Of a stretch of DNA of 64,000 nt, positions 29,113-44,778 are shown in pieces. Position 1 is the stretch's first letter, and the number at the start of each line of letters is the position of its first letter. The notes beneath the pieces are model-generated. The model ran no database searches, was not told the origin of the DNA, and saw only the letters and a list, made by a program, of their open reading frames with translations. Where the stretch lies: assembly GCA_003152165.1 (NCBI GenBank), contig PLZO01000022.1:2362-66361 (forward strand). The letters are read 5' to 3'. This DNA comes from Chloroflexota bacterium. Lineage in GTDB: Bacteria; Chloroflexota; Limnocylindria; Limnocylindrales; CSP1-4. A program made the position numbers and the translations under genes.

Positions 29113-29619
29113 TTAGCCGGAGGGTCCGGCCTGGGGATCGTCCGGATCTCCGCCCCCGACCCCGCCGCCGGCATCGCGCTTCTCGGTGTCCGCCAGCTTG
29201 CGCCGGTTCGTCTCGCGAGTTCTCAGGATCGAGCCGGCTGCCTTCATCGAGTCAACCGTGGGCGGGGGGTTGGCCGCCCGGCGCTGGCGGCCCAGCTCCC
29301 GAGCGGCCTGCCGGGCCGCGGCCCGGGCGGCCGTGCGTGCCCCGATCGTCGCCTCGTAGCCCTGCTCGCTCGGCTGGTAGTAGCGCCGTTCGGCCAGCGC
29401 TTCGGGCAGGTACAGCTGCGCGATGTCGGAGTCCTCGAAGTCGGGCGGATAGCGATAGCCAACGCCATAGCCATAGTGCTTCATGGCCGGATGCCCCGCG
29501 CTGCGCAGGTGGAGCGGGACCGGCAGCGCCCCACTCGCGTCAAGGTCCGCGACGGCCGCCCAGTAGGCGGTCCCGGATCGGTTCGACTTCGGGGCGGTGG
29601 CCAGGTAGGTCGTAGCTTG
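29113..29619 (-). pseudogene. Displaced 3' remnant of rarA (C-terminal ~170 codons, no 5' part)
   Basis: Translation (…TAPKSNRSGTAYWAAVADL…LPVPLHLRSAGHPAMKHYGYGVGYRYPPDFE…QGYEATI…) is about 60% identical to the C-terminus of the intact RarA at 41287-42795. Codon usage matches the host (GC3-rich). Homology stops at about 29620; the upstream 26 codons are unrelated. Confidence 0.7.
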
Positions 29620-29698
29620 CGCCCATGGACATCGTTCGTCGCGTCGATTATCGTGATCCTGGCGACCCCATTCGACCCCGAACTCGAAGGACCTCACG

Positions 29699-31018
29699 AT
29701 GACAACGATACGGCCCGCTGCCTATGTCAGGAAGAGCCATCGCGACGCCGTCTCGGCGACGGCTCAACTAGCGTCCATCCAGGAGCTTGCCATCCGGCAG
29801 GGTGTCACCGCACCGCTGGCGGTCTATGCCGATGTTGGGGTGTCCGGGCGTGCCGGGAAGAGGGGTGTCAAGTCAGAGTGGGGTCGCCTGCGCGATGACA
29901 TCACCGCGGGCTCCATCACCGTCGTCTACGTGACCGCCCTCGACCGTGCCGGTCGCTCACTCCTCGAATGGCTTCAGTTCGTCGAGCTCTGCGTCGCCAA
30001 GGGGGTCGAGGTCCGTGACCAGTCGGGCGTCGATCGAACGTCGGGTGACGCCGAGGACATCGCCACCATCGAGATGATGATGGCGCAACGTGAGGGGCGC
30101 AAAGCCGTCGAACGATCCGCCCGTGGTCGAGCCACGCAGGCCCGCAGGGGGGATGACGTCTACCAGGGCCACCCACCGTACGGGTGGATGCGCGTCAAGG
30201 ACGCCAACGGGCGCATCACGCAGATCGCCAACCCCGCCGAGCCGCTCCAACCCCTCCTAGAGGCCATCAGAGCCACCAAGGGGAACGTCTTGGCCGCGGC
30301 GCGGTTCCTATCCACCTCGGGAGTTCCGACGCGCTCCGGGCGGCCTTGGGACGCTCGGGTGTTGACCCGCGCTCTCGACCGCCAGGGAGTGATCCGGGCA
30401 CGACGCGAGGGCGCACGCCGACGTCGCGGTCCGTCCGACGCGCCGTTGTCGCGGATCGTCGTGTGCCACTGCGGCGCAACGATGACGCCCGAGCGCGATC
30501 GTCGCAACGGCCAATGGCTCGGCCTCGTGTGCTCGGTCGGGCGCAAGGCGGGTCAAGCGTCGCACGGGCGGTACATCGCACGATCGCGGCACGTCATGGA
30601 GTTGCTCAAAGCGTCAATGCGGGTCACCACCCACCACATCGAGCGATCGTCGCCGACCGACACCGCCGCGCAGCGGACCGACCTCGAGGCGAAGCGTCGC
30701 CGACTCGGCATGGCGTTGGCCGATGACGCGATCGGCGAGGACGACTACCGCGTCCGAATGGAGGCCGTCAAACGCGACCTCGCCGAGCTCGATGAGAGCG
30801 TCGCGGGCGAGGGTGAGTGGATCGGATGGACTCACGGTCCGTTGGTCGACTGGACGGTCGATGACGTCGCGCTCGGCGATCGCCTCCGGTCGCTAGTACG
30901 ATCCGTCACGCTCGACACGGACATGATGCCCGTCGCGGCCGACTACCGCGTCCCGTGGTTGCCCGCTGGCGTGTCGCGCTCGCGCCGCTCTACCGAAGAG
31001 AAGCCTTCCCACGCGTGA
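29699..31018 (+). CDS. Large serine recombinase (serine integrase)
   Basis: N-terminal resolvase-type catalytic domain (AAYVRKSHRD…TAQ…, catalytic Ser context), recombinase domain, zinc ribbon (CHCG…C), C-terminal coiled coil. 439 aa. Confidence 0.85.
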   Translation: MTTIRPAAYVRKSHRDAVSATAQLASIQELAIRQGVTAPLAVYADVGVSGRAGKRGVKSEWGRLRDDITAGSITVVYVTALDRAGRSLLEWLQFVELCVAKGVEVRDQSGVDRTSGDAEDIATIEMMMAQREGRKAVERSARGRATQARRGDDVYQGHPPYGWMRVKDANGRITQIANPAEPLQPLLEAIRATKGNVLAAARFLSTSGVPTRSGRPWDARVLTRALDRQGVIRARREGARRRRGPSDAPLSRIVVCHCGATMTPERDRRNGQWLGLVCSVGRKAGQASHGRYIARSRHVMELLKASMRVTTHHIERSSPTDTAAQRTDLEAKRRRLGMALADDAIGEDDYRVRMEAVKRDLAELDESVAGEGEWIGWTHGPLVDWTVDDVALGDRLRSLVRSVTLDTDMMPVAADYRVPWLPAGVSRSRRSTEEKPSHA

Positions 31019-31486
31019 GTGGGTCGGCCGCTCGCCACGCTTCGCCTCGCAATGGGCTCTGCTCTTCACGCGCGCGTTGCTCTGCGGTAGCGATGCAGTG
31101 GGCGTGTGTCGCAACCTGACGCTGCTCGAACTCGATCGCGCGTGCGGCGAACTCCGCATCCGTCTCCGCGGCGCGCGCGGGGATGACCTTGTCGTCTTCC
31201 CGCCGCTCAGCGCGTGCGGGCCACGGTTCAACGGGACCCCACATCGAGCACCACGAGCAATCGTGCCAGTCGGGAGGAACGTCCATGTCGGGAGTCTCGC
31301 ACCTGCCTCGCGCACGCCTCTACGACCTGAAAGTACCGCCGACGAGCCTTCGACCGAGCACGACGTAGAGAAGCGTCGAAACGCTCCCGGAGAGGGCATA
31401 GCGAGGCTCCACGCACGAATCTCGGGTCGAGAATCTGGCACTTTCACGAGAACGGGTGGAAACACGTCTTTGGGCCGTTCTACGAT

Positions 31487-31527
31487 CTAGCTGCGCCTAG
31501 CGCCTCGCTTAGAGTGGCTCTGGTAGA
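31487..31527. repeat. Cluster of phased TAG-containing repeats (CTAGC, CTAGC, TTAGAG, GTAGAG; 10-13 bp spacing) containing the 12-mer TAGAGTGGCTCT
   Basis: The 12-mer recurs at 37450-37461 inside a second cluster (cgcTAGAGtggctctTAGCGcgctccTAGCGtcc, 37447-37479). CTAG is otherwise rare in this high-GC DNA. Both clusters lie inside the island. Confidence 0.45.
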
Positions 31528-31678
31528 GGCGTCCTCCGCGTCACGCTCCCGTGCCAGGAGCGCCCAACATGGCGGGCAAAGGCCGAACCCACTCGCGGCG
31601 CTTCCGGCCATCCAGCGCGCATCGTGATGCGTCCATGGGCGGAGGCACCGCTCGCACGGCGGCGGGCCCGCGTCGCGC

Positions 31679-32128
31679 TCAGCCGACTCCAGCACCGATC
31701 AGACCGCGCGATCGAACGACTTCCACCACGTCCATGCCGTCGTCGGGTGCTGCGGGCGACGCATCGACCGAGCGGAGCACGCCGTCCTCGTCGATCGGAG
31801 GTGACTCCTTCGCCACCCGCGTCGCCTCGCTGTTCCCGCCGGTGAACGTCGACTCGACCGTGACCGGGCGACGCTCTTTGGGTTCGGCGATCGCGTGGAG
31901 CCGGTGCGACGCGAACGCGGTCGACATGGCCTCGTCGGTCCTGCCGCCGATGACCGTTCCGCATGAGCACACAGCGCGACGTTTCGCGCCGTAGCGGACC
32001 TCCGCCACGACATGGCCGACGGCCATCCGCGAGCGGTTGCCTCCGAGCCGCTGGCCTGAATTCCATGAGGAGTGGCCCCTCACCGCGGCACCATGGCCGC
32101 GACGCACGCCGCGAGGATGAAGAGCCAT
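31679..32128 (-). CDS. Hypothetical protein (last gene of the minus-strand coupled operon); start uncertain (ATG 32128 or ATG 32026)
   Basis: ORF follows the upstream gene stop (32151) after 22 nt. No recognisable domain; contains CSCG. Confidence 0.3.
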   Translation of the reverse strand: MALHPRGVRRGHGAAVRGHSSWNSGQRLGGNRSRMAVGHVVAEVRYGAKRRAVCSCGTVIGGRTDEAMSTAFASHRLHAIAEPKERRPVTVESTFTGGNSEATRVAKESPPIDEDGVLRSVDASPAAPDDGMDVVEVVRSRGLIGAGVG

Positions 32129-32150
32129 ACCACGAAGAAGACGATCGTTC

Positions 32151-32330
32151 TCACCGCGTGGTGTCCGCGACGTTCGCCCTGATGCCGTCCTCGACGGCGG
32201 TCTGGACACGGGCGAGGCGGAGTGCTTCGCGACGCAGCGTGACGGCGTCGATCGCCTCCCGCCGCTGTCGCTCACGCTCCCGCTGCGTCGCGGACTTCGC
32301 GTGCGGAACGGCGGTGGCCATGTGGCCCAT
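32151..32330 (-). CDS. Small hypothetical protein (59 aa, Arg/Glu-rich helical)
   Basis: ATG at 32330 overlaps the upstream stop as ATGA (translational coupling). Sequence MGHMATAVPHAKSATQRERERQRREAIDAV…. Confidence 0.4.
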   Translation of the reverse strand: MGHMATAVPHAKSATQRERERQRREAIDAVTLRREALRLARVQTAVEDGIRANVADTTR

Positions 32331-33175
32331 CACCGGACCGTCCCGTCGGGCCGCGTCGCGGTGATCGTGGACCCGGTGGAGCCACGCTCTGACGACTTGG
32401 CCATCCCGGCGGGTTCGACATACTCCTCGCCGACCGCCCACGCCCCCATGGCCGCGGACATCTTCGCCGCGATCGACGTCTCGGCGCGTACCTTGAGCGA
32501 CGCGGTCACGACCTCGGGTCGGCCCGCAGCGAGGGCGGCATCTTCGATCAACTTGAGGACCTGCGTCTGCGACGCGAGGATCGCGCGCTCGTGTTCGATG
32601 GCCGCGGCTTGAGCGCGCGCCTCAGCCTGGACGAACACGCGACGCGCGGGATCAGCCAGATCGTAGTCCATATCGATGCTCTTGACGATGCTTCCCGCCG
32701 TTGCGTCGCCGAGTTGGCTTGCCGCCTGCGCGAGTACCCGTGCCTGCGAGAGCGCGCCGAGGCCGTAGAGGTTGATCGCCCGCTCGGAGAGCGACGCAAC
32801 GCGGTCCTTGTCCACCGTGCCGTTGGCCGTCTTCGCGTCGCGCACGAGCTGCGCGACTTCCGCCCGATCGGACGCGCGACGCGCCTCCTCGGCGGGTGAC
32901 TGGACGCGATCGCGTTCGGTCGCGAGGCCCTTCCGTGCCTCACGGACGATGTAGCCCGTCAAGCGCGACGTGCGCTCACGCGCCACGGCGGCGGCCGTGT
33001 CGAACGTGCCACGCGCGGTGGCCAAGTCGGCATCGAGCGTCTTCGGGTCGATGAGCACGCCCTGTGTCGCGCGCTCGGTGATGCGGATCGCTTGTGAGTT
33101 GATCTTGAGCACGTCCGCGTTGAACGCATCGGCGACGTCTTTCAACGTGTAGGTGGGTACTTCAGTCGGTGGCAT
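32330..33175 (-). CDS. Hypothetical alpha-helical protein (281 aa)
   Basis: ATG at 33175 preceded by gaaggagg at -5. Non-repetitive helical sequence; possible phage structural, scaffold-like or regulatory protein; no motif recognised. Confidence 0.55.
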   Translation of the reverse strand: MPPTEVPTYTLKDVADAFNADVLKINSQAIRITERATQGVLIDPKTLDADLATARGTFDTAAAVARERTSRLTGYIVREARKGLATERDRVQSPAEEARRASDRAEVAQLVRDAKTANGTVDKDRVASLSERAINLYGLGALSQARVLAQAASQLGDATAGSIVKSIDMDYDLADPARRVFVQAEARAQAAAIEHERAILASQTQVLKLIEDAALAAGRPEVVTASLKVRAETSIAAKMSAAMGAWAVGEEYVEPAGMAKSSERGSTGSTITATRPDGTVR

Positions 33176-33329
33176 GTGGGCCTCCTTCGAGGTTGGTGAT
33201 GATCCGATCGAGTACGTCCCGATCGCGCGTGGTGTCGAGCGCCCAAGCCGCCGCCAGGAGACGGATGAGGATCCGCTCCAGCGGTGTGAAGCTCGGTTCG
33301 GTTACTGATGTGCGACGCTTGCTCTTCAT
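33162..33329 (-). CDS. Small hypothetical protein (55 aa)
   Basis: ATG at 33329 overlaps the upstream stop as ATGA, with an aggagg RBS 5 nt upstream. Its stop overlaps the start region of the next gene. Confidence 0.45.
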   Translation of the reverse strand: MKSKRRTSVTEPSFTPLERILIRLLAAAWALDTTRDRDVLDRIITNLEGGPHATD

Positions 33330-33997
33330 GTGTCCTCCTGTGTCCTTAGGTGCTCCTTCACGTCAGGCGACGCGTTGGCCATGCCCGTAGCGTGGTGTTC
33401 CGTGTGCCGCCGGACCTCCGCCCGCGACGCCTCGATCGCCGCGGTCGGCTCCACGTAGTCGACCCACGGCATGAGCGGTAGGCCCAACGTCGCCCGGAGT
33501 GCGTTGGCCGCGTCGAAGCGGGCCCGTGGGTACGGGAGCAGCGCCGTGAAGAGCTGCGCTTCGAGGCCGCTCTCGACGAAGGCCTCCACGGCGATCGCGC
33601 CGGTGTCGCGCGTGTCCGCCGGCGGGGTGCCGATCCGTGCGAGGTCAGATGCCGCTCGTCTCCGCTCGGCGAGGATGCCCAAGCGCACGCCGGGACCGAC
33701 CGAGTCGAGGGGGATGTCCAGTCCGGCGATCACGCTCCGGAGGAGTTCCTCGGCGGTCAGCGGTAGTTCCTTCGCCTGCGTGGCTTCTGTTCGCCTGGGT
33801 GGCTCTTGCGGGCTACCGGTGACCACCGGAACGACATGCCCATTGCGCTTGTGCCGTGCGATCGCGTCCCGGTGGCAGCCGATCATCCGTGCGATCACGA
33901 CAGCGGGTCGACCGGCCAGGATCATGGAGTCGGCCATGGCCCGCTGCGGATTGCTGCAGACGGTACAGCGGCTCCCGATCACGGGTCCCTTGCTCAT
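33326..33997 (-). CDS. Zinc-ribbon + HTH DNA-binding protein (first gene of operon)
   Basis: I place the start at the ATG at 33997 (RBS ggaga at -7). N-terminus CTVCSNPQRAMADSMILAGRPAVVIARMIGCHRDAIARHKRNGH is a CxxC zinc ribbon plus an HTH, resembling phage small terminase/regulator N-termini. Confidence 0.55.
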   Translation of the reverse strand: MSKGPVIGSRCTVCSNPQRAMADSMILAGRPAVVIARMIGCHRDAIARHKRNGHVVPVVTGSPQEPPRRTEATQAKELPLTAEELLRSVIAGLDIPLDSVGPGVRLGILAERRRAASDLARIGTPPADTRDTGAIAVEAFVESGLEAQLFTALLPYPRARFDAANALRATLGLPLMPWVDYVEPTAAIEASRAEVRRHTEHHATGMANASPDVKEHLRTQEDT

Positions 33998-34088
33998 GGT
34001 CGTGTCTCCGGTCGCGCAGACACGACAGCGGTTGCGGTCCGTGCGCGGTGAACTCCCGGCGTGGTAACTTGCGACCCGGAGGTCGCGA

Positions 34089-34122
34089 GTTCTTCGCGAC
34101 GTGACGTGGACACGCGAAGAAC
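34089..34122. promoter_or_regulatory. Inverted repeat gttcttcgcg-N14-cgcgaagaac upstream of the 33997 operon; candidate operator
   Basis: 10-bp perfect inverted repeat flanking acgtgacgtggaca, about 90-125 bp upstream of the operon start. Embedded TCGCGA hexamers. Confidence 0.35.
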
Positions 34123-34139
34123 GCATCTGCGTACAAGCG

Positions 34140-34840
34140 GGTGAGAAGCCGCCTTCACAAACTGCTCCCCGGAAACGACGCCCGCGGGATACACCCCGGG
34201 GGTTGATACACGCCCCCTAGACGGTTGAGAGCACGTGTAAGAGGCACCGGCGGGGGCCGAGCGGCCGTTGCGTACGTCCGTCACGATGTCGCCCCTCTCA
34301 GTGGCAGTGCAGAGCGTGAATATGTATTTATCACAGCGGGGCATGCGACTCGTGGATATGTATTCACGAACGTACCCAACCGACGGCTATGTGTGTGCAC
34401 ACGTACGTCCACGAGGGATCGACTTCCGACAACGGCACCCGCCACCAACCAACGCTTGTAATGCAACCGCGAGGAATACTCGGAGGAACTGCCCCCGCAT
34501 ATCCACACACCCGCGCATGCAAGCGGCGCACCAAAGCGCCTCGAATACCTCGGTCGGCCGTCCACAACACCCGCGGCCCTCTGCACAACGGCCCCGTCCG
34601 TGCACCGAGCCGACACAAGAGCGGCACTCACACGACTCACCGATGCTTCGTGGGTGTATCCGCGGCCCCGAACCACATCGGCCGTCTGAGGGTGACCGGC
34701 ACGAGAGCGAGCAATATACTCAGTGCCGTTCTTTACATGCCCCGCTAATCGACACACGCCGTTGTACTCAAGCGGCCGCTTCCCGTATACGATAGCAACG
34801 TCATTCCGGAGCACTCCGGAGAACGAACCCGAAGGAGATG
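34140..34840. other. About 700-bp non-coding, comparatively AT-rich region with multiple short direct repeats (iteron-like)
   Basis: No credible ORF in any frame. Repeats: GATACAC(G)CCCC x2 (34188-34216); ATATGTATT(TAT)CAC x2 (34319-34366); CGTACGTCC x2 (34270, 34401); ACACCCGCG x2 (34507, 34567). Runs of CA/ACAC. Confidence 0.5.
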
Positions 34841-34841
34841 C

Positions 34842-35054
34842 ATGTTCCCATACACCATCGACTCGAGCCCCACCAAAGCAACCCCGAAGCGAACCGCTCC
34901 GAAGCGGATCTGGGTCCACTCCACACACGCCGTCATGGCCGCCGCGCGACGTTGGGATATGGAGCACATCCCGGCGATCCGAGCCGCCGAGGAAGCTCAC
35001 CCGAGTGTCGGCTTCGAGCGCGACGAATACGGGCCTCTCATCCTCAACTGGTAG
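34842..35054 (+). CDS. Small hypothetical protein (70 aa)
   Basis: ATG preceded by gaaggaga at -5. Sequence MFPYTIDSSPTKATPKRTAPKRIWVH…; no known motif. Confidence 0.5.
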   Translation: MFPYTIDSSPTKATPKRTAPKRIWVHSTHAVMAAARRWDMEHIPAIRAAEEAHPSVGFERDEYGPLILNW

Positions 35055-35164
35055 CCGACCACGATCGTCGTTGGCAGTGGTCAGTGCTAATGGCAGTGGT
35101 GACCACTTCCCGCCGTTGAGACCGGCATTCCATCCGCGCCTCCACGAACACTGACCACTACCAC

Positions 35165-35210
35165 CCCCCCTATTTATATAGGGGATAGGGGTGGTAGTGG
35201 TAGTGGTGAG
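35165..35210. terminator. Strong hairpin (13-bp perfect stem ccactaccacccc / ggggtggtagtgg, AT-rich loop ccctatttatataggggata) between convergent genes; putative bidirectional terminator
   Basis: Perfect 13-bp inverted repeat with a 20-nt loop, located between the 3' ends of 34842..35054(+) and 35231..35902(-). No U-tract, as is common in high-GC genomes. Confidence 0.45.
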
Positions 35211-35230
35211 GCGTGGTGCCCACAAGTGAC

Positions 35231-35902
35231 TCATACGTCCTCGGGGTCGGCGTCGGGATCGACACGGAAGTACAATCGCTTCTTCGCTCCGCCGACACTT
35301 GTCGCGACGTAGACGACTCGTAGTTTCCCGTCTTCAACGAGTTCCGCGACGCGCTTCCGGACCGTCTCGCGAGACCGCCCACTGACCTCAACGAGCGACG
35401 CCATGTCGAGCCCCTCACCGTCGGTCGGGATCGCGTCGAGGAAGCTCTCCCACTCGTCTTCCGAAGCGACGTTCAACGCCTTCGTGGCAGCGGCCTCGGC
35501 GCGGAAGACGTTGTAGAGGCACGTGTAGACGGCTTCGGTGTACTTGAACCCGCTTTGAGTGAACCGCTCACCGTCGCGTACAACGCACTTGGAGTCATCC
35601 CCGTACGTGTCCGACGGTAAGCCGACACGAGCGAGCTCTTTGGCCGCCCACACGTCGCGAGCGGTACGCGCTTCCTGGTAGGACGGGAACGTGCCGTCCT
35701 GTTTCGACCAACGGTTCTTCCCGTGGATGAGCGGGTCGAATACGTCGCGGAAGTCGTACGCGCTCGTGGCCTTCGGGCGGTCGGGATCATCGAGCGCCGT
35801 GCGAATATCCACGGGAAGCTCTTCGCGACGCAACGGGCGTGGTGGTTGAGGCCGTTGGGCGTAGTGCGTGTCGGTGCGTGCGTTCCAGTCGATGGGGCTC
35901 AC
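35231..35902 (-). CDS. Hypothetical protein with a C-terminal winged-helix-like segment (223 aa)
   Basis: GTG start overlaps the stop of the upstream XRE gene (GTGA). C-terminus …LVEVSGRSRETVRKRVAELVEDGKLRVVYV… is wHTH-like; the N-terminal 150 aa are unassigned. Confidence 0.5.
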   Translation of the reverse strand: MSPIDWNARTDTHYAQRPQPPRPLRREELPVDIRTALDDPDRPKATSAYDFRDVFDPLIHGKNRWSKQDGTFPSYQEARTARDVWAAKELARVGLPSDTYGDDSKCVVRDGERFTQSGFKYTEAVYTCLYNVFRAEAAATKALNVASEDEWESFLDAIPTDGEGLDMASLVEVSGRSRETVRKRVAELVEDGKLRVVYVATSVGGAKKRLYFRVDPDADPEDV

Positions 35903-36330
35903 GACGTCACGCTCTCGGCGACGCGGTCGGCGAGGAACGCGTCTACCTCCGCCACCGAATGGAGGCGATTGTCGTCGTAGGGCGGGTCAAGGAAGATGTC
36001 CCAAGACGCTCCTTCGACAGTACTCTGGCCACCGCCATCAACGCCGATGCCAGCGACGCGGAGTCGGTCTTCTTGGGAGTGTCGCTCCACGAGCGACGCA
36101 TCGACACCGGTCACGCTCTCGGCGATCGCCATCAGCCGCGACGCGCGGCCAGGTTCATTCCGTGGTGACCCGTGTCGTTCGACGATGGCCACGAGTGATT
36201 GTGAGAGTCCACCCAATTGCGCGAGCTCACTTTGGTTCAGTCCCGCCCGTAAGCGGGCCCGACGTAGTGCGACACCTTCGGTTGGGCGTGGTGCGCGTTC
36301 GGTGACGTAGCGTGGTCCTATTCGTGTCAT
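35899..36330 (-). CDS. XRE-family HTH protein with an uncharacterised C-terminal domain (repressor-like)
   Basis: ATG at 36330 with aaggaagg RBS. HTH LRRARLRAGLNQSELAQLGGLSQSLVAIVERHG; C-terminal region contains DIFLDPPYDDN. Divergent from the 36818 gene across a 470-bp region. Confidence 0.6.
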   Translation of the reverse strand: MTRIGPRYVTERAPRPTEGVALRRARLRAGLNQSELAQLGGLSQSLVAIVERHGSPRNEPGRASRLMAIAESVTGVDASLVERHSQEDRLRVAGIGVDGGGQSTVEGASWDIFLDPPYDDNRLHSVAEVDAFLADRVAESVTS

Positions 36331-36493
36331 TCGGTACCTTCCTTTCACTCATTCGTGCGAGTTGGTGGCGTGTAGAGAAGTCGATCGTTCAGTAGTATTC
36401 CCGAATGACAAGGCGGGTTCACGGTGACCCGACGATCACCCATTGGTAGCGGGGTGTTCTCGGGAGTCCAACCCGGTCTTCCGCCATTCTTCC

Positions 36494-36717
36494 GAACGTT
36501 CACGTTCGACTGCTTGGGTGATACGACTATTGTAACGCATGCTCGCCGGCTATGCGCACCTATAACCCACCGGGTGACGTCGCCAGACCACTCAGTGACG
36601 TTGCCCATATGAAGTCGATCGGATACGCGGTGATGTCATCAGCGCGCCTCTCCGTCGTTTCCTAGACGGTGTCGCCTGAATGCGCCATTGAAGTCGGCGA
36701 AGTTGCGTTTCACGTTC
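36494..36717. promoter_or_regulatory. Divergent promoter/operator region with repeated TTCACGTTC motifs
   Basis: gaACGTTCACGTTCgac at 36494-36510 (overlapping palindrome GAACGTTC) and a second TTCACGTTC at 36709-36717; a TTCACGG at about 36416. Lies between the XRE gene and the 36818 gene. Confidence 0.4.
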
Positions 36718-36817
36718 AAGTTGGCTATGGACAATCTGCGCGATCAGCGCGAAGGTTGACGTTGTCGTCGATCGACGATCACCAACGAACGACCGCGAGG
36801 TCGAAAGGGACTTTTCA

Positions 36818-37312
36818 ATGACACGGATCGCAACCGCCAAGGACGCCGCCGCCGCCATCAAGGTCATTCGGGCCCCGAAGGCCGCGAAGGTCGCGCCGAT
36901 CGTCGACACCGCCGCGAAGATCGTCGGCCAGTGCGTTGCATCGCCAACGCGAGCCCCACACATCAAGGTTCGTTGCACGAACCCGATCGGCACCATCAAT
37001 CACGTCCTTTGCGACGAACACGCCGAACTTCTCAAGGCCAACGCGAAGGCCGCCAAGGCGTCCGCGCCAAAGAGCGCGAAGGCGAAGCCCGTCAAGCCGA
37101 AGTCGGCGGGAACGTCAAAGGCTTCCACGAAGGCACCGAAGATCGTCACCGCTCCCGAACTCCCGACGCACGCCGCGAAGGTCGCCCGCACGTCGATCAT
37201 GCAACCCGCGCTCGCTCGCATCCCGCGACCGAGCACGTGGACGCCAACCGTCGAGCAACCCGCCACGTACGTCAACCTCGTGACGCCAGGCGGACCCGAA
37301 CCGACCGAATAG
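36818..37312 (+). CDS. Basic Ala/Lys-rich protein with a Cys/His cluster and a histone-H1/HU-tail-like repeat region
   Basis: RBS gaaaggga. Contains C-x11-C-x10-C-x2-H (CVASPTRAPHIKVRCTNPIGTINHVLCDEH), then KANAKAAKASAPKSAKAKPVKPKSAGTSKASTKAPK. Confidence 0.5.
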   Translation: MTRIATAKDAAAAIKVIRAPKAAKVAPIVDTAAKIVGQCVASPTRAPHIKVRCTNPIGTINHVLCDEHAELLKANAKAAKASAPKSAKAKPVKPKSAGTSKASTKAPKIVTAPELPTHAAKVARTSIMQPALARIPRPSTWTPTVEQPATYVNLVTPGGPEPTE

Positions 37313-37733
37313 TCGTCGATCGACGATCGACCCCCACGAGGCCCGACCAACATCGGGCCTCGTTCCATGTCCGGCGCCGCCACCCGTCCACTCAGAGGCG
37401 ATGCCCAAGCGAAGTCGCGAAACTACCCGACTTCACCGGCTCCGTTCGCTAGAGTGGCTCTTAGCGCGCTCCTAGCGTCCAGGCGCGCGACTCCGAGCAA
37501 ACGCCGCCACCACGGGACTGTACTCACGAAGGAACTCCTCTCCGCAGGCCCGATCTCGGCGTCGTCCGACCAGCGCACTCTGGGGCGTCGCGGTCCCTAT
37601 GTACACGGCGCGCCCGCGCGCGTATCGTGGCCTTGCGCGTTTGCGCAAGGACGCAACCATGGAGGACCACAGTGGATCGCCGCCACCTGGCCCGTGACAG
37701 GCGGGCCGTCACGACGCCCGGCATACTCAGACC

Positions 37734-38768
37734 ATGACCGACGAGCGACCACCTGTTGAGCCAGTCCTACAGACCGAACTCGGGGCGCTCTACGCGGGAG
37801 ACTGCGTCCCGCTCATGCGGGCGCTGCCTGCGGGATCGGTCGACCTTTTCTTCGCCGATCCACCCTTCAACCTCGGCAAGGACTACGGGGTCGCCGCGCC
37901 GGACAACCACACCGAAGACCGCTATCTGAAGTGGTGCTTCGAGTGGCTGTCCGAAGGAGTCCGGCTGCTCAAACCGGGCGGGTCGATGTTCGTCTACAAC
38001 CTCCCGAAGTGGTCGATCCCCATTGGCGAGTTCCTACGGACTCGGTTGACCTTCCGGCACTGGATCACGGTCGAGATCAAGTTCGGGCTTCCGATCACGG
38101 GTCGCCTCTACCCGAGCCACTACGGCTTGCTCTACTTCGTGAAGGGGAAGCGGCCGAACCGCTTCGACCCGCCGCGCCTCGCGATGCCGACCTGCCGGCA
38201 CTGCGGCGGCGAGATCCCGGACTACGGCGGCTACAAGGACAAGATGAACCCGAAGGGGCTCAACCTCTCCGACGTGTGGAGCGACATCGCGCCGGTCCGC
38301 CACTCGCGGTTCAAGAATCGGGAAGCGAACGAACTGTCGCTCAAGCTGATGGATCGAGTCCTCGACATCGGCTCGGCGCCTGGCGACATCGTCCTGGACC
38401 CCTTCGGCGGAGCCGGGACCACCTACGTCGCGGCCGAACTCAAGCACCGCCGCTGGATCGGGATGGAGTTGAGCACCGCTGACGCTATCGTGGATCGGTT
38501 CGCCGACCTCAGCCAGGATCGGGCGAACCTTCGCCGATACCGGTCGGGGATCAACACCCTGTTCACGCCCGAGGCGTTGGCCCTGCGCGCCCGGTCGGGC
38601 ATGGGCAGGAACAACCACCGGTACAACATCGAAGGGGCCGCGCCCGACGCTCGACTCAACGGAGAGGTCCACCAACTCTCGCTCGACACCACCGAGACAG
38701 TCGAGTCGATCGAGGGTGGGCTAACGAAGAGCCCGGCCGTCGGTTCCCTTCCGGATGAGCGGCACTAA
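37734..38768 (+). CDS. DNA methyltransferase, beta-class (N4-cytosine or N6-adenine), Type II R-M
   Basis: Motif IV DLFFADPPFN precedes motif I DPFGGAGTT (circularly permuted beta order). Contains a Cys cluster CRHCGGE. Confidence 0.8.
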   Translation: MTDERPPVEPVLQTELGALYAGDCVPLMRALPAGSVDLFFADPPFNLGKDYGVAAPDNHTEDRYLKWCFEWLSEGVRLLKPGGSMFVYNLPKWSIPIGEFLRTRLTFRHWITVEIKFGLPITGRLYPSHYGLLYFVKGKRPNRFDPPRLAMPTCRHCGGEIPDYGGYKDKMNPKGLNLSDVWSDIAPVRHSRFKNREANELSLKLMDRVLDIGSAPGDIVLDPFGGAGTTYVAAELKHRRWIGMELSTADAIVDRFADLSQDRANLRRYRSGINTLFTPEALALRARSGMGRNNHRYNIEGAAPDARLNGEVHQLSLDTTETVESIEGGLTKSPAVGSLPDERH

Positions 38769-39446
38769 CGGATCGGTCGCGTCGTAGCTGACGACAATCA
38801 CGGCCAAGCGGCCAGGAACGTCGACTCGACCGTAGACCTCGCGGTACAGCGATAGCTCGCGCCAGTTGCCGGTCCGGTCGGTGAGGTAGCGGTAGAGATC
38901 GCCATCGGGGAGGCACAAGACGGCCTGCTGCGCGAGACCACGCATCAAGGCGACGGTCAGTCGGTTGAGTGACCGATGCGAGCTGCTGATATTGCCGGTC
39001 TCCCACTCGACCAACGTGGACCAGGCGCTCGCCAGCGCCTTGCCCGCGTCGAAGCCGCCTCGACGGCCAAAGAGCGGGATCTCCATCGTCCAGCCACGCG
39101 CCTTCAGGTCGAGGGCGAATGCTTGCTTGATCGGCACGACACCGTTGCCTTGTCGCTTCGGGTTGATCGTGAACTTGCCCGATCCGGGCGGCCAGTGGAT
39201 CGTCGGGATGACCAACCTGATCTGGGCGAGGTCGGCGTCGGCAACCGCGATCTCACCGGGGTCAGTGAGTCGATCGAACAGGACGACCTCTTCCGCGATC
39301 AGCACGGACCGAGAGTACAACGCGTCACCCCCAATGGGCCAAACGCGGCGCTCGTCCACGAGACCGTCATGGCGACTGACCCAACAAGTGGTCTGGCTCG
39401 CCTCGCATAGCGGAGAGGATGCCAATTCGGACACCCCCACGTGCAA
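38721..39446 (-). CDS. Putative Type II restriction endonuclease (convergent partner of the MTase)
   Basis: 241 aa, convergent with the MTase and overlapping its 3' end by about 48 nt. Possible PD…(D/E)xK elements (TDPGE … ALDLKA). No family-level match recognisable by eye. Confidence 0.4.
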   Translation of the reverse strand: MHVGVSELASSPLCEASQTTCWVSRHDGLVDERRVWPIGGDALYSRSVLIAEEVVLFDRLTDPGEIAVADADLAQIRLVIPTIHWPPGSGKFTINPKRQGNGVVPIKQAFALDLKARGWTMEIPLFGRRGGFDAGKALASAWSTLVEWETGNISSSHRSLNRLTVALMRGLAQQAVLCLPDGDLYRYLTDRTGNWRELSLYREVYGRVDVPGRLAVIVVSYDATDPLVPLIRKGTDGRALR

Positions 39447-39781
39447 GTGGGCGCCTAATGCCGTGGGAATAAGCGTGCGGAGCTATTTGTCGTAATAGCC
39501 CGATGTCTATTGAGCAACGCACCGGTCGCGTAATCGAGCCGAATCTTGCCACGATCGCGCACAAACATAGGCTTCCATATGTAACGCGGCGCCACGGATG
39601 CCGCATATCCACCTGGCTGGTATGTCGAATGGTGACGGACTCGTTGGCTGGGGGAGATCCGGATACGCGAGCCAGGACGATTGCCGTAACGATGTCATGG
39701 AGACGGACTTGACAGGCCGGGCATTCCGTGCAAACTCAACATCGTCAACTTCGGCAGTCAACGATGGAGGACGGATTAGCG

Positions 39782-40375
39782 ATGAACCCCGACGACGTGA
39801 CCCATATTCTCGCAGGCGCGGTCAAGGCAGTGACCGACGCCAAGGTGCCGCCGGACCTGGCACCGGTTGCCTTCGAAAAGGCGATCGACATGCTCGCCGG
39901 CCCGCGGCCGGTGGCAGCTTCGACAACGGCGACATTGGGGGTGCCAACCTCGGTCGCCGCGCCGACCACGCCCACCGGGTCAGCGATCGACCGCTTGGCG
40001 ACCCGCCTTCATCTTTCGCACGAGGTTGTCGAAGCCGTCTTTACGGAGAACGGAGATGAGCTCGCGATCAGCGTGCCGCCCGATCGGTTGGCGAAGGCCA
40101 AGAGTGCAGGCGCCCGTGAGATCGCCCTGCTCGTCGCGGCCGCGCGCCAGAGCAGCTCGGATGATCCGACAACGACCGACCAGATCAGGCGGGCTGTCGA
40201 GGATTACAACCGATTTGACGGGCCGAATTTCGCCTCGTCTCTTTCGCCGATGAAGGGAACATTCCTCGTCGCCGGTCCCTCGCGCTCGCGAACCTTCAAG
40301 TTGACGAAGCCTGGATGGACGGCTGCCGCCTCGCTGGTCGGCCGGTTGGGCGCCCCTGACAAGTCAGCATCGTGA
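39782..40375 (+). CDS. Hypothetical protein (198 aa), first gene of a 2-gene cassette
   Basis: ATG with ggagga RBS. Helical N-terminus, Ala/Thr/Pro-rich linker, C-terminal domain. Its stop overlaps the next start (ATGA). Confidence 0.5.
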   Translation: MNPDDVTHILAGAVKAVTDAKVPPDLAPVAFEKAIDMLAGPRPVAASTTATLGVPTSVAAPTTPTGSAIDRLATRLHLSHEVVEAVFTENGDELAISVPPDRLAKAKSAGAREIALLVAAARQSSSDDPTTTDQIRRAVEDYNRFDGPNFASSLSPMKGTFLVAGPSRSRTFKLTKPGWTAAASLVGRLGAPDKSAS

Positions 40376-41193
40376 CCACGGGGCGAGCCCGAACGGCCTC
40401 TCACTCGCCGGTCCCAGCTGCGAGCACCGGGGGTCCGGCCGCGGTGCTCGGCGGCCTGCCCCTCGGCATCAGGCAGGAGCTCATCGACGAGTTGAACAAG
40501 ATCGAGCGCCATTTCCGCGAGGGCCGCTGGGAACCTGCGGAACTCGACGGCGGGCGACTGTGCGAGATCGTCTACTCGATCGTCCGCGGCGAACTGGACG
40601 GCAAGATCCCGTCCAAGGCGTCCAAGCCGACCGACCTTGTTGGGGCGATCCGGGCCCTCGAGGGCGTGCCAGCATCGACCGGACCGCGATCGTTCCGGAT
40701 CACGATCCCGCGCGCCCTTCTCGGGATCGTGGACGTCCGGAACGATCGTGACGTTGGCCATATCGGCGGCGAGGTCTCCTCTAACCACATGGATGCCTCC
40801 TATGTCCTTGCCGGTGCCAAGTGGCTGGTCGCCGAGCTTGTCCGCTACTACCACCAGGTCGACACCGCGACCGCCACCACGTTTGTTGAAGCGTTGATCG
40901 AACGGGACACCCCAGCTGTTTGGCAGGTCGCGGGCACGAAGCGACTACTCCTGCATGGCGTCTCGATGCCTGATCGGACCCTCGTGGCCCTCGATTCGAC
41001 CGCCGGACCGGTCCATACCACGGACCTCCGGGAGTGGACGGGCTACTCCAACGCGACGCTGTTCCGGCAGAGCATCCTGGTCGAGCTGCATCGCGCCGAT
41101 CTCATTCACTACGACCGCAAGACTGGCCTTGTGTATATCTCGCCGCTCGGTGCCAAACGTGTCGCCGACCACCTACACCAGTGGGTCGCCTAG
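40372..41193 (+). CDS. Hypothetical protein with a possible HEPN-like R-x6-H motif and a C-terminal winged-helix-like region (273 aa)
   Basis: …ITIPRALLGIVDVRNDRDVGHIGGEVSSNHMDASYVLAGAKWLVAELVRYYH… then …ELHRADLIHYDRKTGLVYISPLGAKRV. Translationally coupled to the upstream gene. Located in the island beside the R-M system. Confidence 0.5.
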   Translation: MTTGRARTASHSPVPAASTGGPAAVLGGLPLGIRQELIDELNKIERHFREGRWEPAELDGGRLCEIVYSIVRGELDGKIPSKASKPTDLVGAIRALEGVPASTGPRSFRITIPRALLGIVDVRNDRDVGHIGGEVSSNHMDASYVLAGAKWLVAELVRYYHQVDTATATTFVEALIERDTPAVWQVAGTKRLLLHGVSMPDRTLVALDSTAGPVHTTDLREWTGYSNATLFRQSILVELHRADLIHYDRKTGLVYISPLGAKRVADHLHQWVA

Positions 41194-41286
41194 ATCTTGG
41201 TCAATACGATCAATTAGGCGTCGATCCCAGGTGACAACGCTGTGGTACTCGGCGCGTTCCTTGCCGCCGGCTCCACGATCCCTCCC

Positions 41287-42795
41287 TCAAGTTCCAGCGT
41301 CGCGCTTCTGCGTCTCCGCGAGCTTCTTGCGGCTCTCGTTGTGGGCGTTCAGCCCGTCGCTCATCGACCCCATCGGGTCGAGGCCCGGCCGATCCTGCTT
41401 CCGACGCTGGCGACCAGCTTCCCGAACAGCTTGCCGAGCACCATCTAATACAGCCATCCGCGCGCGGACCGTCGCTTCGTAGCCCTGGTCGCCCGGCACG
41501 TAGTACCGCTGCTCCACGAGGGCATCGGGAAGGTACTGCTGCGAGATGTCGTCGCCCTCGAACTCGTGGGGGTTGCGGTAGCCGACACCGTCGCCGTATT
41601 GCTTCATGGCCGGATGACCCGCCGTCCGGAGATGCGCCGGGACCGGCAGCGATCCGTACTTCAACACGTCAGCCATCGCCGCGGCATAGGCGCGACCTAC
41701 CGCGTCCGACTTGGGCGACGACGAAATATGGACGGTCGCCTGGGCGAGGGCGTACTGGGCCTCGGGCAGGCCCACGTGGTCAAGGGCCTGGGCCGCGGCC
41801 ACCGCCACCTGGAGCGCCCGGGGATCGGCGTTGCCGACGTCCTCGGAGGCGCTGATGATCAGCCGCCGGACGATGAACCGGGGATCCTCGCCCGCCGCGA
41901 TCATCGTGGCCAGCCAGTACAGCGCGCCATCGGGATCGTTGCCCCGCAGGCTCTTGATGAAAGCGGAGGCCGTGTCGTAATGGCCGTCGCCGGCCCGGTC
42001 GTAGGCAAGGACCCGTTGCTGGGCGGCGGCCTCGACTTCGGCCAGTCGGGGCGCGACCCGACCCTCCAAATCGCGCACGCCGGCCGATTCGGCCAGGGCG
42101 GTGGCGCCTTCAAGCACATTGAGCGCCTGGCGGGCGTCCCCGCCGGCCAGTCCGACGAGGTGGGCGAAAGCGTCGTCCGGCAGGCTCACCCCACCACTAG
42201 GGCCGAGCGCGCCGGCCAGTCCCCGGTCGGGATCATCGATCGCACGGCGGACCACGGTTCGTACGTCACCGTCGGACAGCGGCTCCAGGCGCCAGACCCG
42301 CAGACGCGACAGGAGCGCGCTGTTCAACTCGAAATAGGGGTTCTCGGTCGTGGCCCCGATCAGGATGATCGTGCCGTCCTCGACGTGGGGCAGTAAGCCG
42401 TCCTGCTGGGATTTGTTGAAGCGGTGGATCTCGTCGATGAACAGAACGCTGCGCGCTCCGTTGAGGCTCAGCCGCTCACGCGCCGTCGCCACCGTCGAAC
42501 GGATCTCGGCGACGCCGCTCATCACCGCCGACAGGCTCATGAAGTCAGCCCCGATCGCGTCGGCGAGGAGCCGGGCCAGGCTGGTCTTGCCCGTCCCCGG
42601 CGGGCCCCACAGCAGGATCGACCCGAGGTAGCCGCGTTCGACCGAGCGGCGCAGAGGACCCTCCTCCCCGACGAGTTGAGCCTGGCCCACGTACTCGGCC
42701 AGCGTTCGCGGGCGCATCCGGGCGGCCAGGGGCTGGACGCCCGGCGGGGGCTGAAAGAGGGCGGCCTGGTCTGGAGCGGGACGGCGCGTCGGCAC
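41287..42795 (-). CDS. rarA: Replication-associated recombination protein A (AAA+ ATPase RarA/MgsA); chimeric, with the 3' ~450 nt supplied by the integrated element
   Basis: Walker A GPPGTGKTS, Walker B LFIDEIHRF, MgsA C-terminal domain (…LRTAGHPAMKQYGDGVGYRNPHEF…). Codon usage shifts to AT-ending codons downstream of …LAQAT (about 41735). Confidence 0.85.
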   Translation of the reverse strand: MPTRRPAPDQAALFQPPPGVQPLAARMRPRTLAEYVGQAQLVGEEGPLRRSVERGYLGSILLWGPPGTGKTSLARLLADAIGADFMSLSAVMSGVAEIRSTVATARERLSLNGARSVLFIDEIHRFNKSQQDGLLPHVEDGTIILIGATTENPYFELNSALLSRLRVWRLEPLSDGDVRTVVRRAIDDPDRGLAGALGPSGGVSLPDDAFAHLVGLAGGDARQALNVLEGATALAESAGVRDLEGRVAPRLAEVEAAAQQRVLAYDRAGDGHYDTASAFIKSLRGNDPDGALYWLATMIAAGEDPRFIVRRLIISASEDVGNADPRALQVAVAAAQALDHVGLPEAQYALAQATVHISSSPKSDAVGRAYAAAMADVLKYGSLPVPAHLRTAGHPAMKQYGDGVGYRNPHEFEGDDISQQYLPDALVEQRYYVPGDQGYEATVRARMAVLDGARQAVREAGRQRRKQDRPGLDPMGSMSDGLNAHNESRKKLAETQKRDAGT

Positions 42796-43083
42796 CCGCT
42801 CAGTCTACGACCGGATCACCTCGGCTCGGACCGGGAGAAGGAGCCGGCTACGTTCGAATAGGCTTGCCGCGCAGCTCAGGCCACGCTGCTCTGTGGCGTC
42901 CAGATCTGGCGGAGTGGCCGGCCGTCGCCCGGCAGCGGGGCGTTCTCGGCGGTCTCGAGCGGCTCCGAGCACGACGATGACGACCTTGTCGGTGGTCGCG
43001 GCCACCGTGTTCAGGATCGTCTGAGCTTCGCGGTAGATCTCGAAGACGGCCGGGGTCGTGCCATTGAGTCCGGGGATCGGGAC

Positions 43084-43521
43084 CTATTCCTCGAGGACCT
43101 GAGTGTCGGGCGGGAGACCGGTCGTGGCCGCGTCAGGATCGCTGGCCGAAACGATCGAGGGCGCGACGTCCCCGGTTGCAAAAGCGTCCGTCAGATCATC
43201 GTCCAGACCGCGGTTCTCGCCGCGTAGCCCGACCAGGTTGCTGTACAGGATCGTCTCGTCAGGCGCGAAGATCTTGACGTGCAGGATTCCCTTGGCGCGG
43301 ATGATCAGAGTCTTCAACTCGCCCTGGATCTCGTCCACCCGGGCCTGCGAGACGCCAGTGAGCGACAGGTCGGCGGCCGGCAGGTCGGTCGCGACGAGCA
43401 CGCTCACGATGGACTGAACCGCCGTGTCCGACCCGACCATCGCGGCCGTCTTGACGCTGTCGCTCCCCACCGCCACGAGGGCGACGGCAGTCGCGGCGAC
43501 GAGGAGCAGGCTGGCGCCCAA
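43084..43521 (-). CDS. Hypothetical secreted/membrane protein (145 aa)
   Basis: Hydrophobic N-terminus (signal/TM) then a soluble domain. No motif recognised. Confidence 0.35.
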   Translation of the reverse strand: MGASLLLVAATAVALVAVGSDSVKTAAMVGSDTAVQSIVSVLVATDLPAADLSLTGVSQARVDEIQGELKTLIIRAKGILHVKIFAPDETILYSNLVGLRGENRGLDDDLTDAFATGDVAPSIVSASDPDAATTGLPPDTQVLEE

Positions 43522-43708
43522 GACCAGGAGCAGGAGCCTGGAGCGGCGCTGCGGCCCGCTCCGAATGGATACTCAACAACGAGAAAGCTCGCCTAGGGAT
43601 TCCCGGAGCCCGACCGTAGGTGGCGGCGATTGGCCTGTCGATAGGCCGTATCGGGAGATGCCCGGGTGGCCGTCCGAGGATGTCCCGGCGTCAGCCGCCC
43701 GGGTGGGG

Positions 43709-44122: not shown

Positions 44123-44198
44123 CTTGGTCCTCCTGTCGATTCCGGCGGCGGTCCGCCGACGGCAGAGGATAGCACCCGGCCCTGCTAGACTCGGCGGC

Positions 44199-44741: not shown

Positions 44742-44778
44742 CGCCCGAGCTGTCACGGGGCTCGGCGATCATCGAGGT

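Follow-up and report, generated by a model that had tools for sequence, protein, structure and literature searches.

Gene organization of the locus

This study concerns two overlapping genes in a 64,000-nt stretch of DNA (the window, whose own coordinates are used throughout) from a Chloroflexota bacterium of the CSP1-4 lineage (GCA_003152165.1, contig PLZO01000022.1). The upstream gene codes for a 143-aa protein with an XRE-type helix-turn-helix (HTH), and the downstream gene for a 223-aa protein with a C-terminal winged helix-turn-helix (wHTH). Both lie in a ~12.1-kb island that carries a serine recombinase gene and is inserted in the 3′ end of rarA. On balance, we lean towards the view that the pair is a two-gene control operon of this island, composed of a variable XRE regulator and a conserved winged-helix factor. 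A preliminary description, made from the letters of the sequence, had suggested a cI/Cro-type control module or, alternatively, a toxin-antitoxin (TA) pair or a controller of the nearby restriction-modification (R-M) system.

The 143-aa open reading frame (ORF), its DIFLDPPYDDN segment and the GTGA coupling to the 223-aa ORF, all given in that description, were confirmed from the sequence (Table 1). A Shine-Dalgarno (SD) sequence, AAGGAAGG, is found 7 nt 5′ of the XRE ATG (36330), and the ENA gene call on identical DNA likewise gives a 143-aa product; a longer ORF of 149 aa, 35899..36348(-), can be read from an alternative GTG at 36348. The JGI calls are shorter, taking the last 77 aa of the XRE ORF and 200 aa of the 223-aa ORF. 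Because the N-terminus of the 223-aa protein (MSPIDWN) aligns with MSGVDWN, MSGIDWK and MKRIDWA in distant homologues, we consider that the GTG start is correct and that the 200-aa call is truncated. The G+C content (GC) by codon position (0.67/0.47/0.77) supports the 223-aa ORF as coding; the C-terminal half of the XRE ORF is also supported by this measure, and its HTH half more weakly. A very stable hairpin, probably a bidirectional terminator, separates the 223-aa gene from a convergent 70-aa ORF, so the pair constitutes a discrete two-gene operon. Rfam returned for the hairpin microRNA-model matches only, far below threshold and spurious. A 317-aa ORF, 34281..35234(-), was ruled out as a gene, since its GC by codon position is flat, as in non-coding DNA.

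Across the intergenic region the pair faces a gene for a 164-aa Ala/Lys-rich protein. Such a divergent region had been described with a length of 470 bp; it does exist, with the Ala/Lys-rich gene on its opposite side, and it measures 487 bp between the two start codons. The divergent gene had been called Ala/Lys-rich and DNA-binding-like. The composition is as stated; no HTH was detected in the product, and no known domain matched it.

The 223-aa protein belongs to a conserved winged-helix family

A word-indexed search with the 223-aa protein recovered only the protein itself. In an exhaustive HMMER search of 1.84 billion representatives, 19 proteins were found at E < 1e-3, most of them 190-240 aa long and aligned end to end, so that the conservation of this ORF, on which the preliminary description had made its proposal depend, is established. 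A profile search with the family alignment recovered four clusters. Two signatures characterize the family, an N-terminal ELPxDVRAMLDDPxRPR, which reads ELPVDIRTALDDPDRPK in the window, and VPSxRGGKPKKVYxRV.

To the family profile, the closest PDB entry was 3zpl, a MarR protein (E = 0.0015), and GntR and Lrp proteins were matched too. The single sequence fared less well: with Pfam it matched HTH_24 only, weakly (E = 0.046), below the threshold of every HTH model, and NCBIfam, PHROGs and PADLOC gave no match. An AlphaFold2 model computed with the family alignment (predicted local distance difference test score, pLDDT, 79) shows a helical N-terminal domain, a long helix and a domain of the H-H-H-beta-beta type (residues 149-213), with pLDDT > 90 over residues 151-210; the single-sequence model (pLDDT 43) was of no use. 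Foldseek, run against the PDB and viral models, matched the wHTH domain alone, with a probability of 1.0 and E > 0.01. Family profile and model thus agree on the C-terminal winged helix that had been noticed in the sequence, and by both the domain is assigned to the MarR-like type. A likeness of the family profile to the ECF (extracytoplasmic function) sigma factor SigJ (E = 0.023) was rejected, given the beta-hairpin wing and the better Lrp/MarR alignment.

The family has a narrow distribution. No match to the one degenerate family motif scanned for was obtained in 185,579 reference genomes, and we found no description of the family in the literature. Searches by tblastn of 50,697 phage records with the 223-aa protein, the XRE protein, P0006, the 281-aa core protein of the island or the recombinase returned nothing, and plasmid records held no relative of the 223-aa protein. 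The islands are known from metagenomes only.

The XRE protein and its C-terminal module

The HTH of the 143-aa protein spans approximately residues 19-53 (36172-36276), and its sequence, LRRARLRAGLNQSELAQLGGLSQSLVAIVE, fits the Cro/cI-type HTH pattern. It scored 20.2 bits with Pfam HTH_31 (cut-off 27) and 19.8 bits with HTH_3 (cut-off 23), with E = 7-8e-4, and the nearest solved structures, which are 434-repressor-like, were matched weakly (E = 0.03-0.2). The protein is therefore likely to be a member of the XRE (HTH_3/HTH_31) class, below the curated threshold. It is without an S24/LexA-type cleavage domain. A word-indexed homologue search gave one partial match only.

The DPPY tetrapeptide (residues 115-118, at 35977-35988) had been likened to motif IV of methyltransferases (MTases). 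A true motif IV, (D/N/S)PP(Y/F), is placed inside an S-adenosylmethionine-binding Rossmann fold that also has motif I. The 77-aa C-terminal part of the XRE protein has no Pfam match at E ≤ 1, N6_N4_Mtase included, and the true MTase of the island (37734-38768) scores 123 bits. We therefore rejected the idea of a methyltransferase remnant: the resemblance does not go beyond the tetrapeptide, and the module that contains it measures 54 aa.

This module (residues 80-133) is 74% identical to residues 25-78 of P0002, a 209-aa metagenomic protein without an HTH, whose flanks are unrelated to the XRE gene at both the DNA and the protein level. Over the 54 shared codons, 16 synonymous and 14 non-synonymous differences were counted, and this points to purifying selection on the reading frame of the module. 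By these comparisons the DPPY segment is part of a small portable protein module, common to one otherwise unrelated protein. The P0002 gene (L002 332-1512; also in L003 and L004) is itself the upstream gene of a pair that overlaps by 4 nt; the gene downstream of it codes for a Zn-ribbon protein of 183 aa that is not related to the 223-aa family.

The pair is found in related islands with different cargo

The segment that contains the pair extends over ~29.53-41.65 kb, in the 3′ end of rarA/mgsA. ORF 41287..42795(-) codes for a complete RarA/MgsA ATPase, and ORF 29113..29697(-) for the last two-thirds of the MgsA_C domain only. The two copies of the rarA 3′ segment have diverged (79% identity over a 127-nt core) and are 12123 bp apart. 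The simplest reading is that the element entered rarA bringing its own replacement 3′ end. The GC is 0.60-0.66 at ~34-42 kb versus ~0.69 elsewhere in the window. With a recombinase at one end, a duplicated target at both ends and an atypical composition, the segment qualifies, as judged from its sequence, as a serine-recombinase integrative island. Besides several orphan genes, it carries the convergent genes of an R-M system, an N6_N4_Mtase (Pfam, E = 2e-35) and a BamHI-family endonuclease (E = 6e-35).

The same DNA is present in several metagenome assemblies. One of them, L021, can be compared with window positions 29734-46768: 11.9 kb of island are without a single difference, but the 4.6 kb of chromosome alongside show 13, which points to a recent transfer or sweep of the island. 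The 12.1-kb island has a single BamHI site, GGATCC (at 33269), versus ~8 sites expected from the density in the window, and host DNA shows no depletion (42 sites versus 41.7 expected). This pattern suggests site avoidance by an element that carries a BamHI-like R-M system, and its recent arrival in the host. The presence of the same DNA in several assemblies, the identical island with a diverged flank and the GGATCC pattern all fit a mobile, recently acquired element.

Contigs were retrieved for six members of the 223-aa family; related loci are given here by their L numbers. Wherever the sequence reaches the 5′ end of the gene (eight other metagenomic loci: L005/L006, L007, L009, L012, L014, L015 and L016), a small upstream ORF overlaps it by 4 nt, as ATGA or GTGA. 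The nature of this upstream ORF varies. It is HTH_31-like in the window, L005, L009 and L012, winged-helix-like in L007, short and acidic in L014 and L015 (in L014 a separate 47-aa HTH-like ORF lies just before it), and Cys-rich and Zn-ribbon-like in L016. A serine recombinase is present in L005, L007, L009 and L014, and the first three of these have in common two further core genes and a small gene adjoining the recombinase. In the long contigs the order is conserved: cargo, coupled pair, small convergent gene, second intergenic region, and then the core genes, namely a Zn-ribbon-HTH gene, an Ala-rich gene of 240-360 aa, small genes and the convergent serine recombinase. The recombinase and the window proteins encoded at 33326-33997, 32330-33175 and 31679-32020 each have a homologous counterpart in the related loci.

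The cargo differs from island to island: an MTase-restriction endonuclease fusion in L005, an MTase with AbiTii in L009, an HSDR_N-like protein in L012, a secreted protein in L007 and the BamHI-like R-M system in the window. Since the same pair occurs in related islands with different cargo, we take it to be a core module of these islands, not an R-M controller and probably not a TA pair. Homologues of the Ala/Lys-rich gene were found in L005 (7381-7869(-)), L007 (859-1335(-)) and L009 (10493-10864(-)); it is divergent from the pair in the window, L005 and L007, and located beside the recombinase in L009.

Repeats and palindromes in the divergent control region

The preliminary description had drawn attention to a repeated 9-mer, TTCACGTTC, and to the palindrome GAACGTTCACGTTCGA. 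Both copies of the 9-mer and the palindrome are present, and the 9-mer has just these two copies (36499 and 36709) in 64 kb. By itself, however, the repeat of TTCACGTTC is not significant, because ~0.75 repeated 9-mers are expected in 487 bp. Taken as a whole, the region is rich in repeats: it contains 8 repeated 9-mer pairs versus the 0.75 expected, a number reached in none of 1000 dinucleotide shuffles, and two repeated 11-mers, GAAGTCGATCG and CGACGATCACC (P = 0.008). Several palindromes are also distributed across it.

The core GTCGATCG is found at 5 independent sites in 36380-37331, versus ~0.5 per kb in the window. One of these sites lies 47-57 nt upstream of the XRE ATG. A 17-mer, GTCGTCGATCGACGATC, which includes the perfect 14-bp palindrome TCGTCGATCGACGA, is located upstream of the Ala/Lys-rich gene and again at its stop codon. 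From their sequence, the GTCGATCG-core palindromes and the motif CCACT[CG]AG, described below, appear to be better operator candidates than TTCACGTTC.

Two observations concern regulatory DNA elsewhere in the island. The 21-bp near-palindrome CGCGGTGATGTCATCAGCGCG has, over positions 36626-36640, an exact 15-nt inverted match at 29894-29908, in the 5′ part of the recombinase gene; this could be a second operator that ties expression of the recombinase to the control region, or a chance match (~1-3%). Upstream of the island core operon, positions 34127-34841 comprise ~700 bp without coding signal, which hold two copies of ATATGTATT(T/C)A..CAC ~50 nt apart and are probably a second control region of the island.

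A motif shared by the intergenic DNA of the islands

The second intergenic regions of five islands were compared. The word GAGCCACTC occurs in four of the five, a result also reached in 2 of 100 shuffles. In its degenerate form, CCACT[CG]AG, the motif is found at 9 sites versus 1.0 expected in 13.7 kb of intergenic DNA from six islands (0/2000 shuffles), and at 2 sites versus 3.3 expected in 46.6 kb of coding DNA. Several of the sites agree over a longer form, C[CT]CAGAnCCACTCAGA. In the window the motif is present upstream of the core operon (34297-34304(-)), in the divergent control region (36588-36595(+)) and upstream of the MTase gene (37388-37395(+)); three other sites only were found in 52 kb of host DNA. 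In the other islands it occurs at L005 12917, L007 6458, L009 7964, 8026 and 10402, and L012 3273. A motif such as CCACT[CG]AG, kept in islands with proteins only ~30% identical, should have a binding protein that is conserved too, and the winged-helix 223-aa family is the obvious, if tentative, candidate.

Table 1. Features of the gene pair, its control region and the surrounding island (window coordinates unless a locus is named)
Feature	Position	Strand	Remarks
223-aa gene, winged-helix protein	35231..35902	-	GTG start overlaps XRE stop as GTGA (4 nt)
MarR/Lrp-like wHTH	35261..35452	-	residues ~151-214 of the 223-aa protein
N-terminal family motif ELPVDIRTALDDPDRPK	35771..35821	-	residues 28-44; from the family alignment
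XRE-type HTH gene	35899..36330	-	143 aa from ATG at 36330
C-terminal module of the XRE protein	35932..36093	-	54 aa, residues 80-133; contains WDIFLDPPY
Divergent control region	36331..36817		487 bp; GC 0.56; no coding signal; rich in direct repeats
GAAGTCGATCG	36377..36387		47-57 nt upstream of XRE ATG; second exact copy 36611-36621
GAACGTTCACGTTCGA (GAACGT-TC-ACGTTC)	36494..36509		holds TTCACGTTC copy 1 (36499-36507)
CCACTCAG, copy of the family-wide intergenic motif	36588..36595	+	inside a direct repeat of 21-bp spacing, 36567-36605
Near-palindrome CGCGGTGATGTCATCAGCGCG	36626..36646		21 bp
TTCACGTTC copy 2	36709..36717		
17-mer GTCGTCGATCGACGATC with 14-bp palindrome TCGTCGATCGACGA	36764..36780		38-54 nt upstream of the Ala/Lys-rich gene; palindrome perfect
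17-mer GTCGTCGATCGACGATC, second exact copy	37312..37328		at the stop codon of the Ala/Lys-rich gene
Ala/Lys-rich gene, divergent from the pair	36818..37312	+	164 aa; invariant C-x11-C-x2-H core (LCxxHExE)
Perfect hairpin	35128..35223		between the 223-aa gene and the convergent 70-aa ORF; -59.7 kcal/mol, z = -5.3
70-aa ORF, convergent with the 223-aa gene	34842..35054	+	GC at third codon position 0.79; SD AAGGAG; ENA gene call
Large serine recombinase	29699..31018	+	Pfam Resolvase E = 1.4e-19; 48% identical to L007 recombinase
Duplicated rarA 3′ segment, left copy	29402..29528		left island boundary; displaced native 3′ end 29113-29528
Duplicated rarA 3′ segment, right copy	41525..41651		right island boundary
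HVxAEVRYG gene	31679-32020	-	L005 12566-12910, L007 6047-6391
Small Cys-rich gene of the related loci			L005 9442-9696, L007 2705-2911, L009 7522-7734, L012 2928-3185, L014 10945-11166, L016 1131-1352

A proposed control circuit and the alternatives to it

We hypothesize that the two proteins divide the control of the island between them; we infer both the assignment of proteins to sites and the direction of regulation. The XRE protein, the variable and island-specific regulator, would bind as a dimer to palindromes in the 487-bp region, its best sites being the GTCGATCG-core sites ~40-55 nt upstream of both divergent starts, the perfect 14-bp palindrome included. Such binding would auto-regulate the operon and repress the divergent transcript of the Ala/Lys-rich gene, which possibly runs on into the cargo. 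Through the GTGA overlap, the 223-aa protein would be made in a fixed ratio with the XRE protein. With its conserved ~150-aa helical N-terminal domain and MarR-like winged helix, the 223-aa protein would be the family-wide DNA-binding factor; it may recognize CCACT[CG]AG, thereby controlling the island core operon, and activate or co-regulate the genes that lie between its own and that of the recombinase.

Several findings weigh against this interpretation. The XRE HTH scores under the Pfam gathering threshold, and a sigma-70 consensus scan, the promoter prediction that had been proposed for the divergent region, found no promoter there. The upstream partner is not an HTH protein in L014, L015 and L016, so that a repressor role is not universal in the family. 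The ~150-aa N-terminal domain has no neighbour in sequence or structure and gives no functional clue. The small Cys-rich gene that stands next to the winged-helix gene in the related loci was not found in a hidden Markov model search of the window. The motif CCACT[CG]AG was found post hoc, and only five of its nine intergenic sites lie outside the discovery regions, where ~0.8 are expected by our estimate. Finally, the Ala/Lys-rich protein, the Zn-ribbon-HTH core protein and the recombinase are other candidate owners of the motif.

In one respect the proposal of a cI/Cro-type module has to be amended. The pair does look like a control module, and it is located in a 12.1-kb recombinase island; a cI/Cro bistable switch needs two divergent HTH regulators, and these are missing here, the divergent Ala/Lys-rich gene having no detectable HTH and the second DNA-binding protein being co-transcribed with the first. 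A bistable switch as such is therefore not supported.

A different possibility, which we regard as unlikely though worth weighing, is that the 223-aa protein is a DNA-transaction factor (one that initiates replication or binds its origin, a partition protein, or the directionality factor of the serine recombinase) and that the XRE protein only controls its expression. No recognizable replication or excision protein is encoded by the island, and among the structural neighbours of the wHTH are Orc1, TubR and the C-terminal domains of phage primase-helicases; these matches are, however, all generic (E > 1e-3 in the PDB). The direct repeats of the control region, two of which are 21 bp apart, speak for it, yet no iteron array of three or more copies is present. 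The motif CCACT[CG]AG near the end of the recombinase operon in L005, L007 and L009 would also suit a factor of this kind. On the other hand, L014 has its own Prim-Pol/DUF3987 replicase besides the family gene, and another small conserved gene, which adjoins the recombinase, is by its position a candidate for the directionality factor.

A role as a type II TA system, with the XRE protein as an auto-repressing antitoxin and the 223-aa protein as a toxin that keeps the island stable, is in our judgement improbable. The architecture is that of such systems, with two small overlapping genes (4 nt) in a bicistron and the HTH gene first, and a conserved downstream gene with unrelated upstream partners, some of them small and acidic, recalls the mix-and-match TA families. 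The XRE HTH even matches a HipB-like antitoxin model of NCBIfam, weakly (23 bits versus a cut-off of 71.65). Against this, the best-conserved part of the 223-aa protein is its MarR-like DNA-binding domain, no toxin or defence match was obtained for it in Pfam, NCBIfam, PADLOC or PHROG, and in the long contigs its gene occupies one fixed place in one island family and not scattered contexts. In addition, the finding of the DPPY module in P0002, whose downstream partner is of another family, argues against a partner-specific neutralizing domain.

That the XRE protein is a controller (C) protein timing the R-M genes seems to us very improbable. The classical BamHI system has a C gene, and the R-M system of the island is BamHI-like; a copy of the 17-mer palindrome and CCACTCAG are found between the Ala/Lys-rich gene and the MTase gene, and the XRE HTH gives weak matches to the PADLOC 'Control_protein' model (E = 0.003) and to C.BclI and C.AhdI (E = 0.1-0.5). 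But those matches are generic and sub-threshold, and position, orientation, size and co-inheritance all disagree with the proposal. The XRE protein has 143 aa and an extra module, versus 70-100 aa for C proteins; its gene is 1.4 kb from that of the MTase and 2.4 kb from that of the endonuclease, points away from them and is separated by another gene; the R and M genes converge, and the space between the two holds no C gene; and the homologous pair stands beside non-R-M cargo in L007, L009 and L012.

Beyond the control operon that we favour, a broader and more speculative reading can be put forward at low probability: the pair would be the master control unit of undescribed serine-recombinase islands of ~10-12 kb that ferry anti-phage cargo (the BamHI-like R-M system, the MTase-restriction endonuclease fusion, the MTase with AbiTii and the HSDR_N-like protein) and are possibly phage satellites, with the winged-helix protein activating via CCACT[CG]AG and the variable partner, in the window the XRE protein with its DPPY module, serving as an exchangeable sensor of when to switch the island on. 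The satellite possibility comes from the island core, which has a Zn-ribbon-HTH protein resembling the product of a gene near a viral large terminase gene, and an Ala-rich scaffold-like protein. If the islands are satellites, a helper signal would be perceived by the variable partner; if they are not, the pair would be an ordinary mobile-element regulator with an orphan partner.

Relation to known systems

Lambda cI/Cro, SaPI Stl/Str, ICEBs1 ImmR-ImmA and SXT SetR/SetCD form the comparison set for a module of this type. As in the immunity modules of these integrative elements, an XRE regulator is placed at a long divergent control region and is variable among relatives. The second gene is translationally coupled to the regulator, like immA to immR, and the logic combines a repressor with a distinct conserved factor. 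By the features compared, the pair does not belong to the cI/Cro, ImmR/ImmA or C-protein families. The partner here is a MarR-like wHTH protein with a new N-terminal domain, unlike Cro, the ImmA-type metalloprotease or SetCD. The divergent gene also differs from those of the immunity modules: its product is Ala/Lys-rich with a Cys/His core, and no HTH was detected in it. An S24 domain is lacking, and the recombinase gene, at the opposite extremity of the island, converges with the core operon.

MarR, Lrp and GntR regulators align with the C-terminal ~65 residues of the 223-aa family, which are likewise modelled as H-H-H-wing, whereas here the wHTH is C-terminal, behind a helical domain of ~150 aa. 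C.BamHI, C.AhdI and C.BclI share with the locus a small XRE-type gene near a BamHI-like R-M system, and differ from it in size, position, orientation, the extra module, the conserved partner and the independence from R-M cargo. HipBA, HigBA and Xre-RES resemble it in gene order, 4-nt overlap and variable upstream partner; unlike theirs, the downstream protein here is of the DNA-binding type, has no toxin signature and is confined to one island family.

Among small serine-integrase elements, phiRv1 is a prophage-like island of Actinobacteria. Small integrative islands with defence genes are common, and it is mainly in a few model systems that their control circuits have been worked out. Small serine-integrase satellites, termed EPIPs, have been reported in Mycobacteriaceae (PMC12822802); they are like the present island in length (~11-12 kb), serine integrase and HTH regulator, a likeness drawn from their description. 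The Zn-ribbon-HTH protein of the island and the Ala-rich helical protein in a scaffold-like position also recall satellites of this type. Unlike in the EPIPs, no structural or packaging gene is detectable in the island of the window, where capsid, terminase, adaptor, tape-measure and primase genes were looked for.

In our view the locus is an ordinary type of circuit built with an uncharacterized conserved protein, in an undescribed island family. It defines this DNA-binding-type family, its 4-nt coupling to an exchangeable partner and a candidate family-wide motif, and it offers an entry point to how one island family is switched on.

Further observations on the islands

The Zn-ribbon-HTH core protein of the window (33326-33997(-)) is 35% identical over 100 aa to gp04 of the Methanoculleus viruses L4768 and Blf4. 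The match covers the Zn-ribbon-HTH N-terminus, and the gp04 gene (NC_074642.1 685-1245) is three genes upstream of that for the large terminase. This likeness hints weakly at a role in packaging or one like that of a small terminase. PHROG and PDB profile searches with two other core proteins gave nothing usable. A scan of genome contigs for relatives of the recombinase found none; in metagenomes one distant locus was recovered, with no gene of the 223-aa family in its 5 kb. In the window, the recombinase gene starts directly beside the displaced rarA fragment.

In the related loci that extend past the 3′ end of the winged-helix gene, a convergent gene just 3′ of it codes for a small Cys-rich protein (MLATYP...C..G...G.C.CW...HPEFAR). 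Its place in the window is occupied by the 70-aa ORF (34842-35054), which is not homologous to it. In three islands the last gene before the convergent recombinase codes for a small protein with the pattern HVxAEVRYG...C.C....TD.AM..AFxSH, which from its position might be the recombination directionality factor. An exact 18-nt direct repeat, GAACGTCGACTCGACCGT, is found at 31844-31861 and 38816-38833, with an 83% copy at 40566-40583; its exact copies fall within island genes that are unrelated to each other, one being the small gene next to the recombinase and the other that for the BamHI-like endonuclease.

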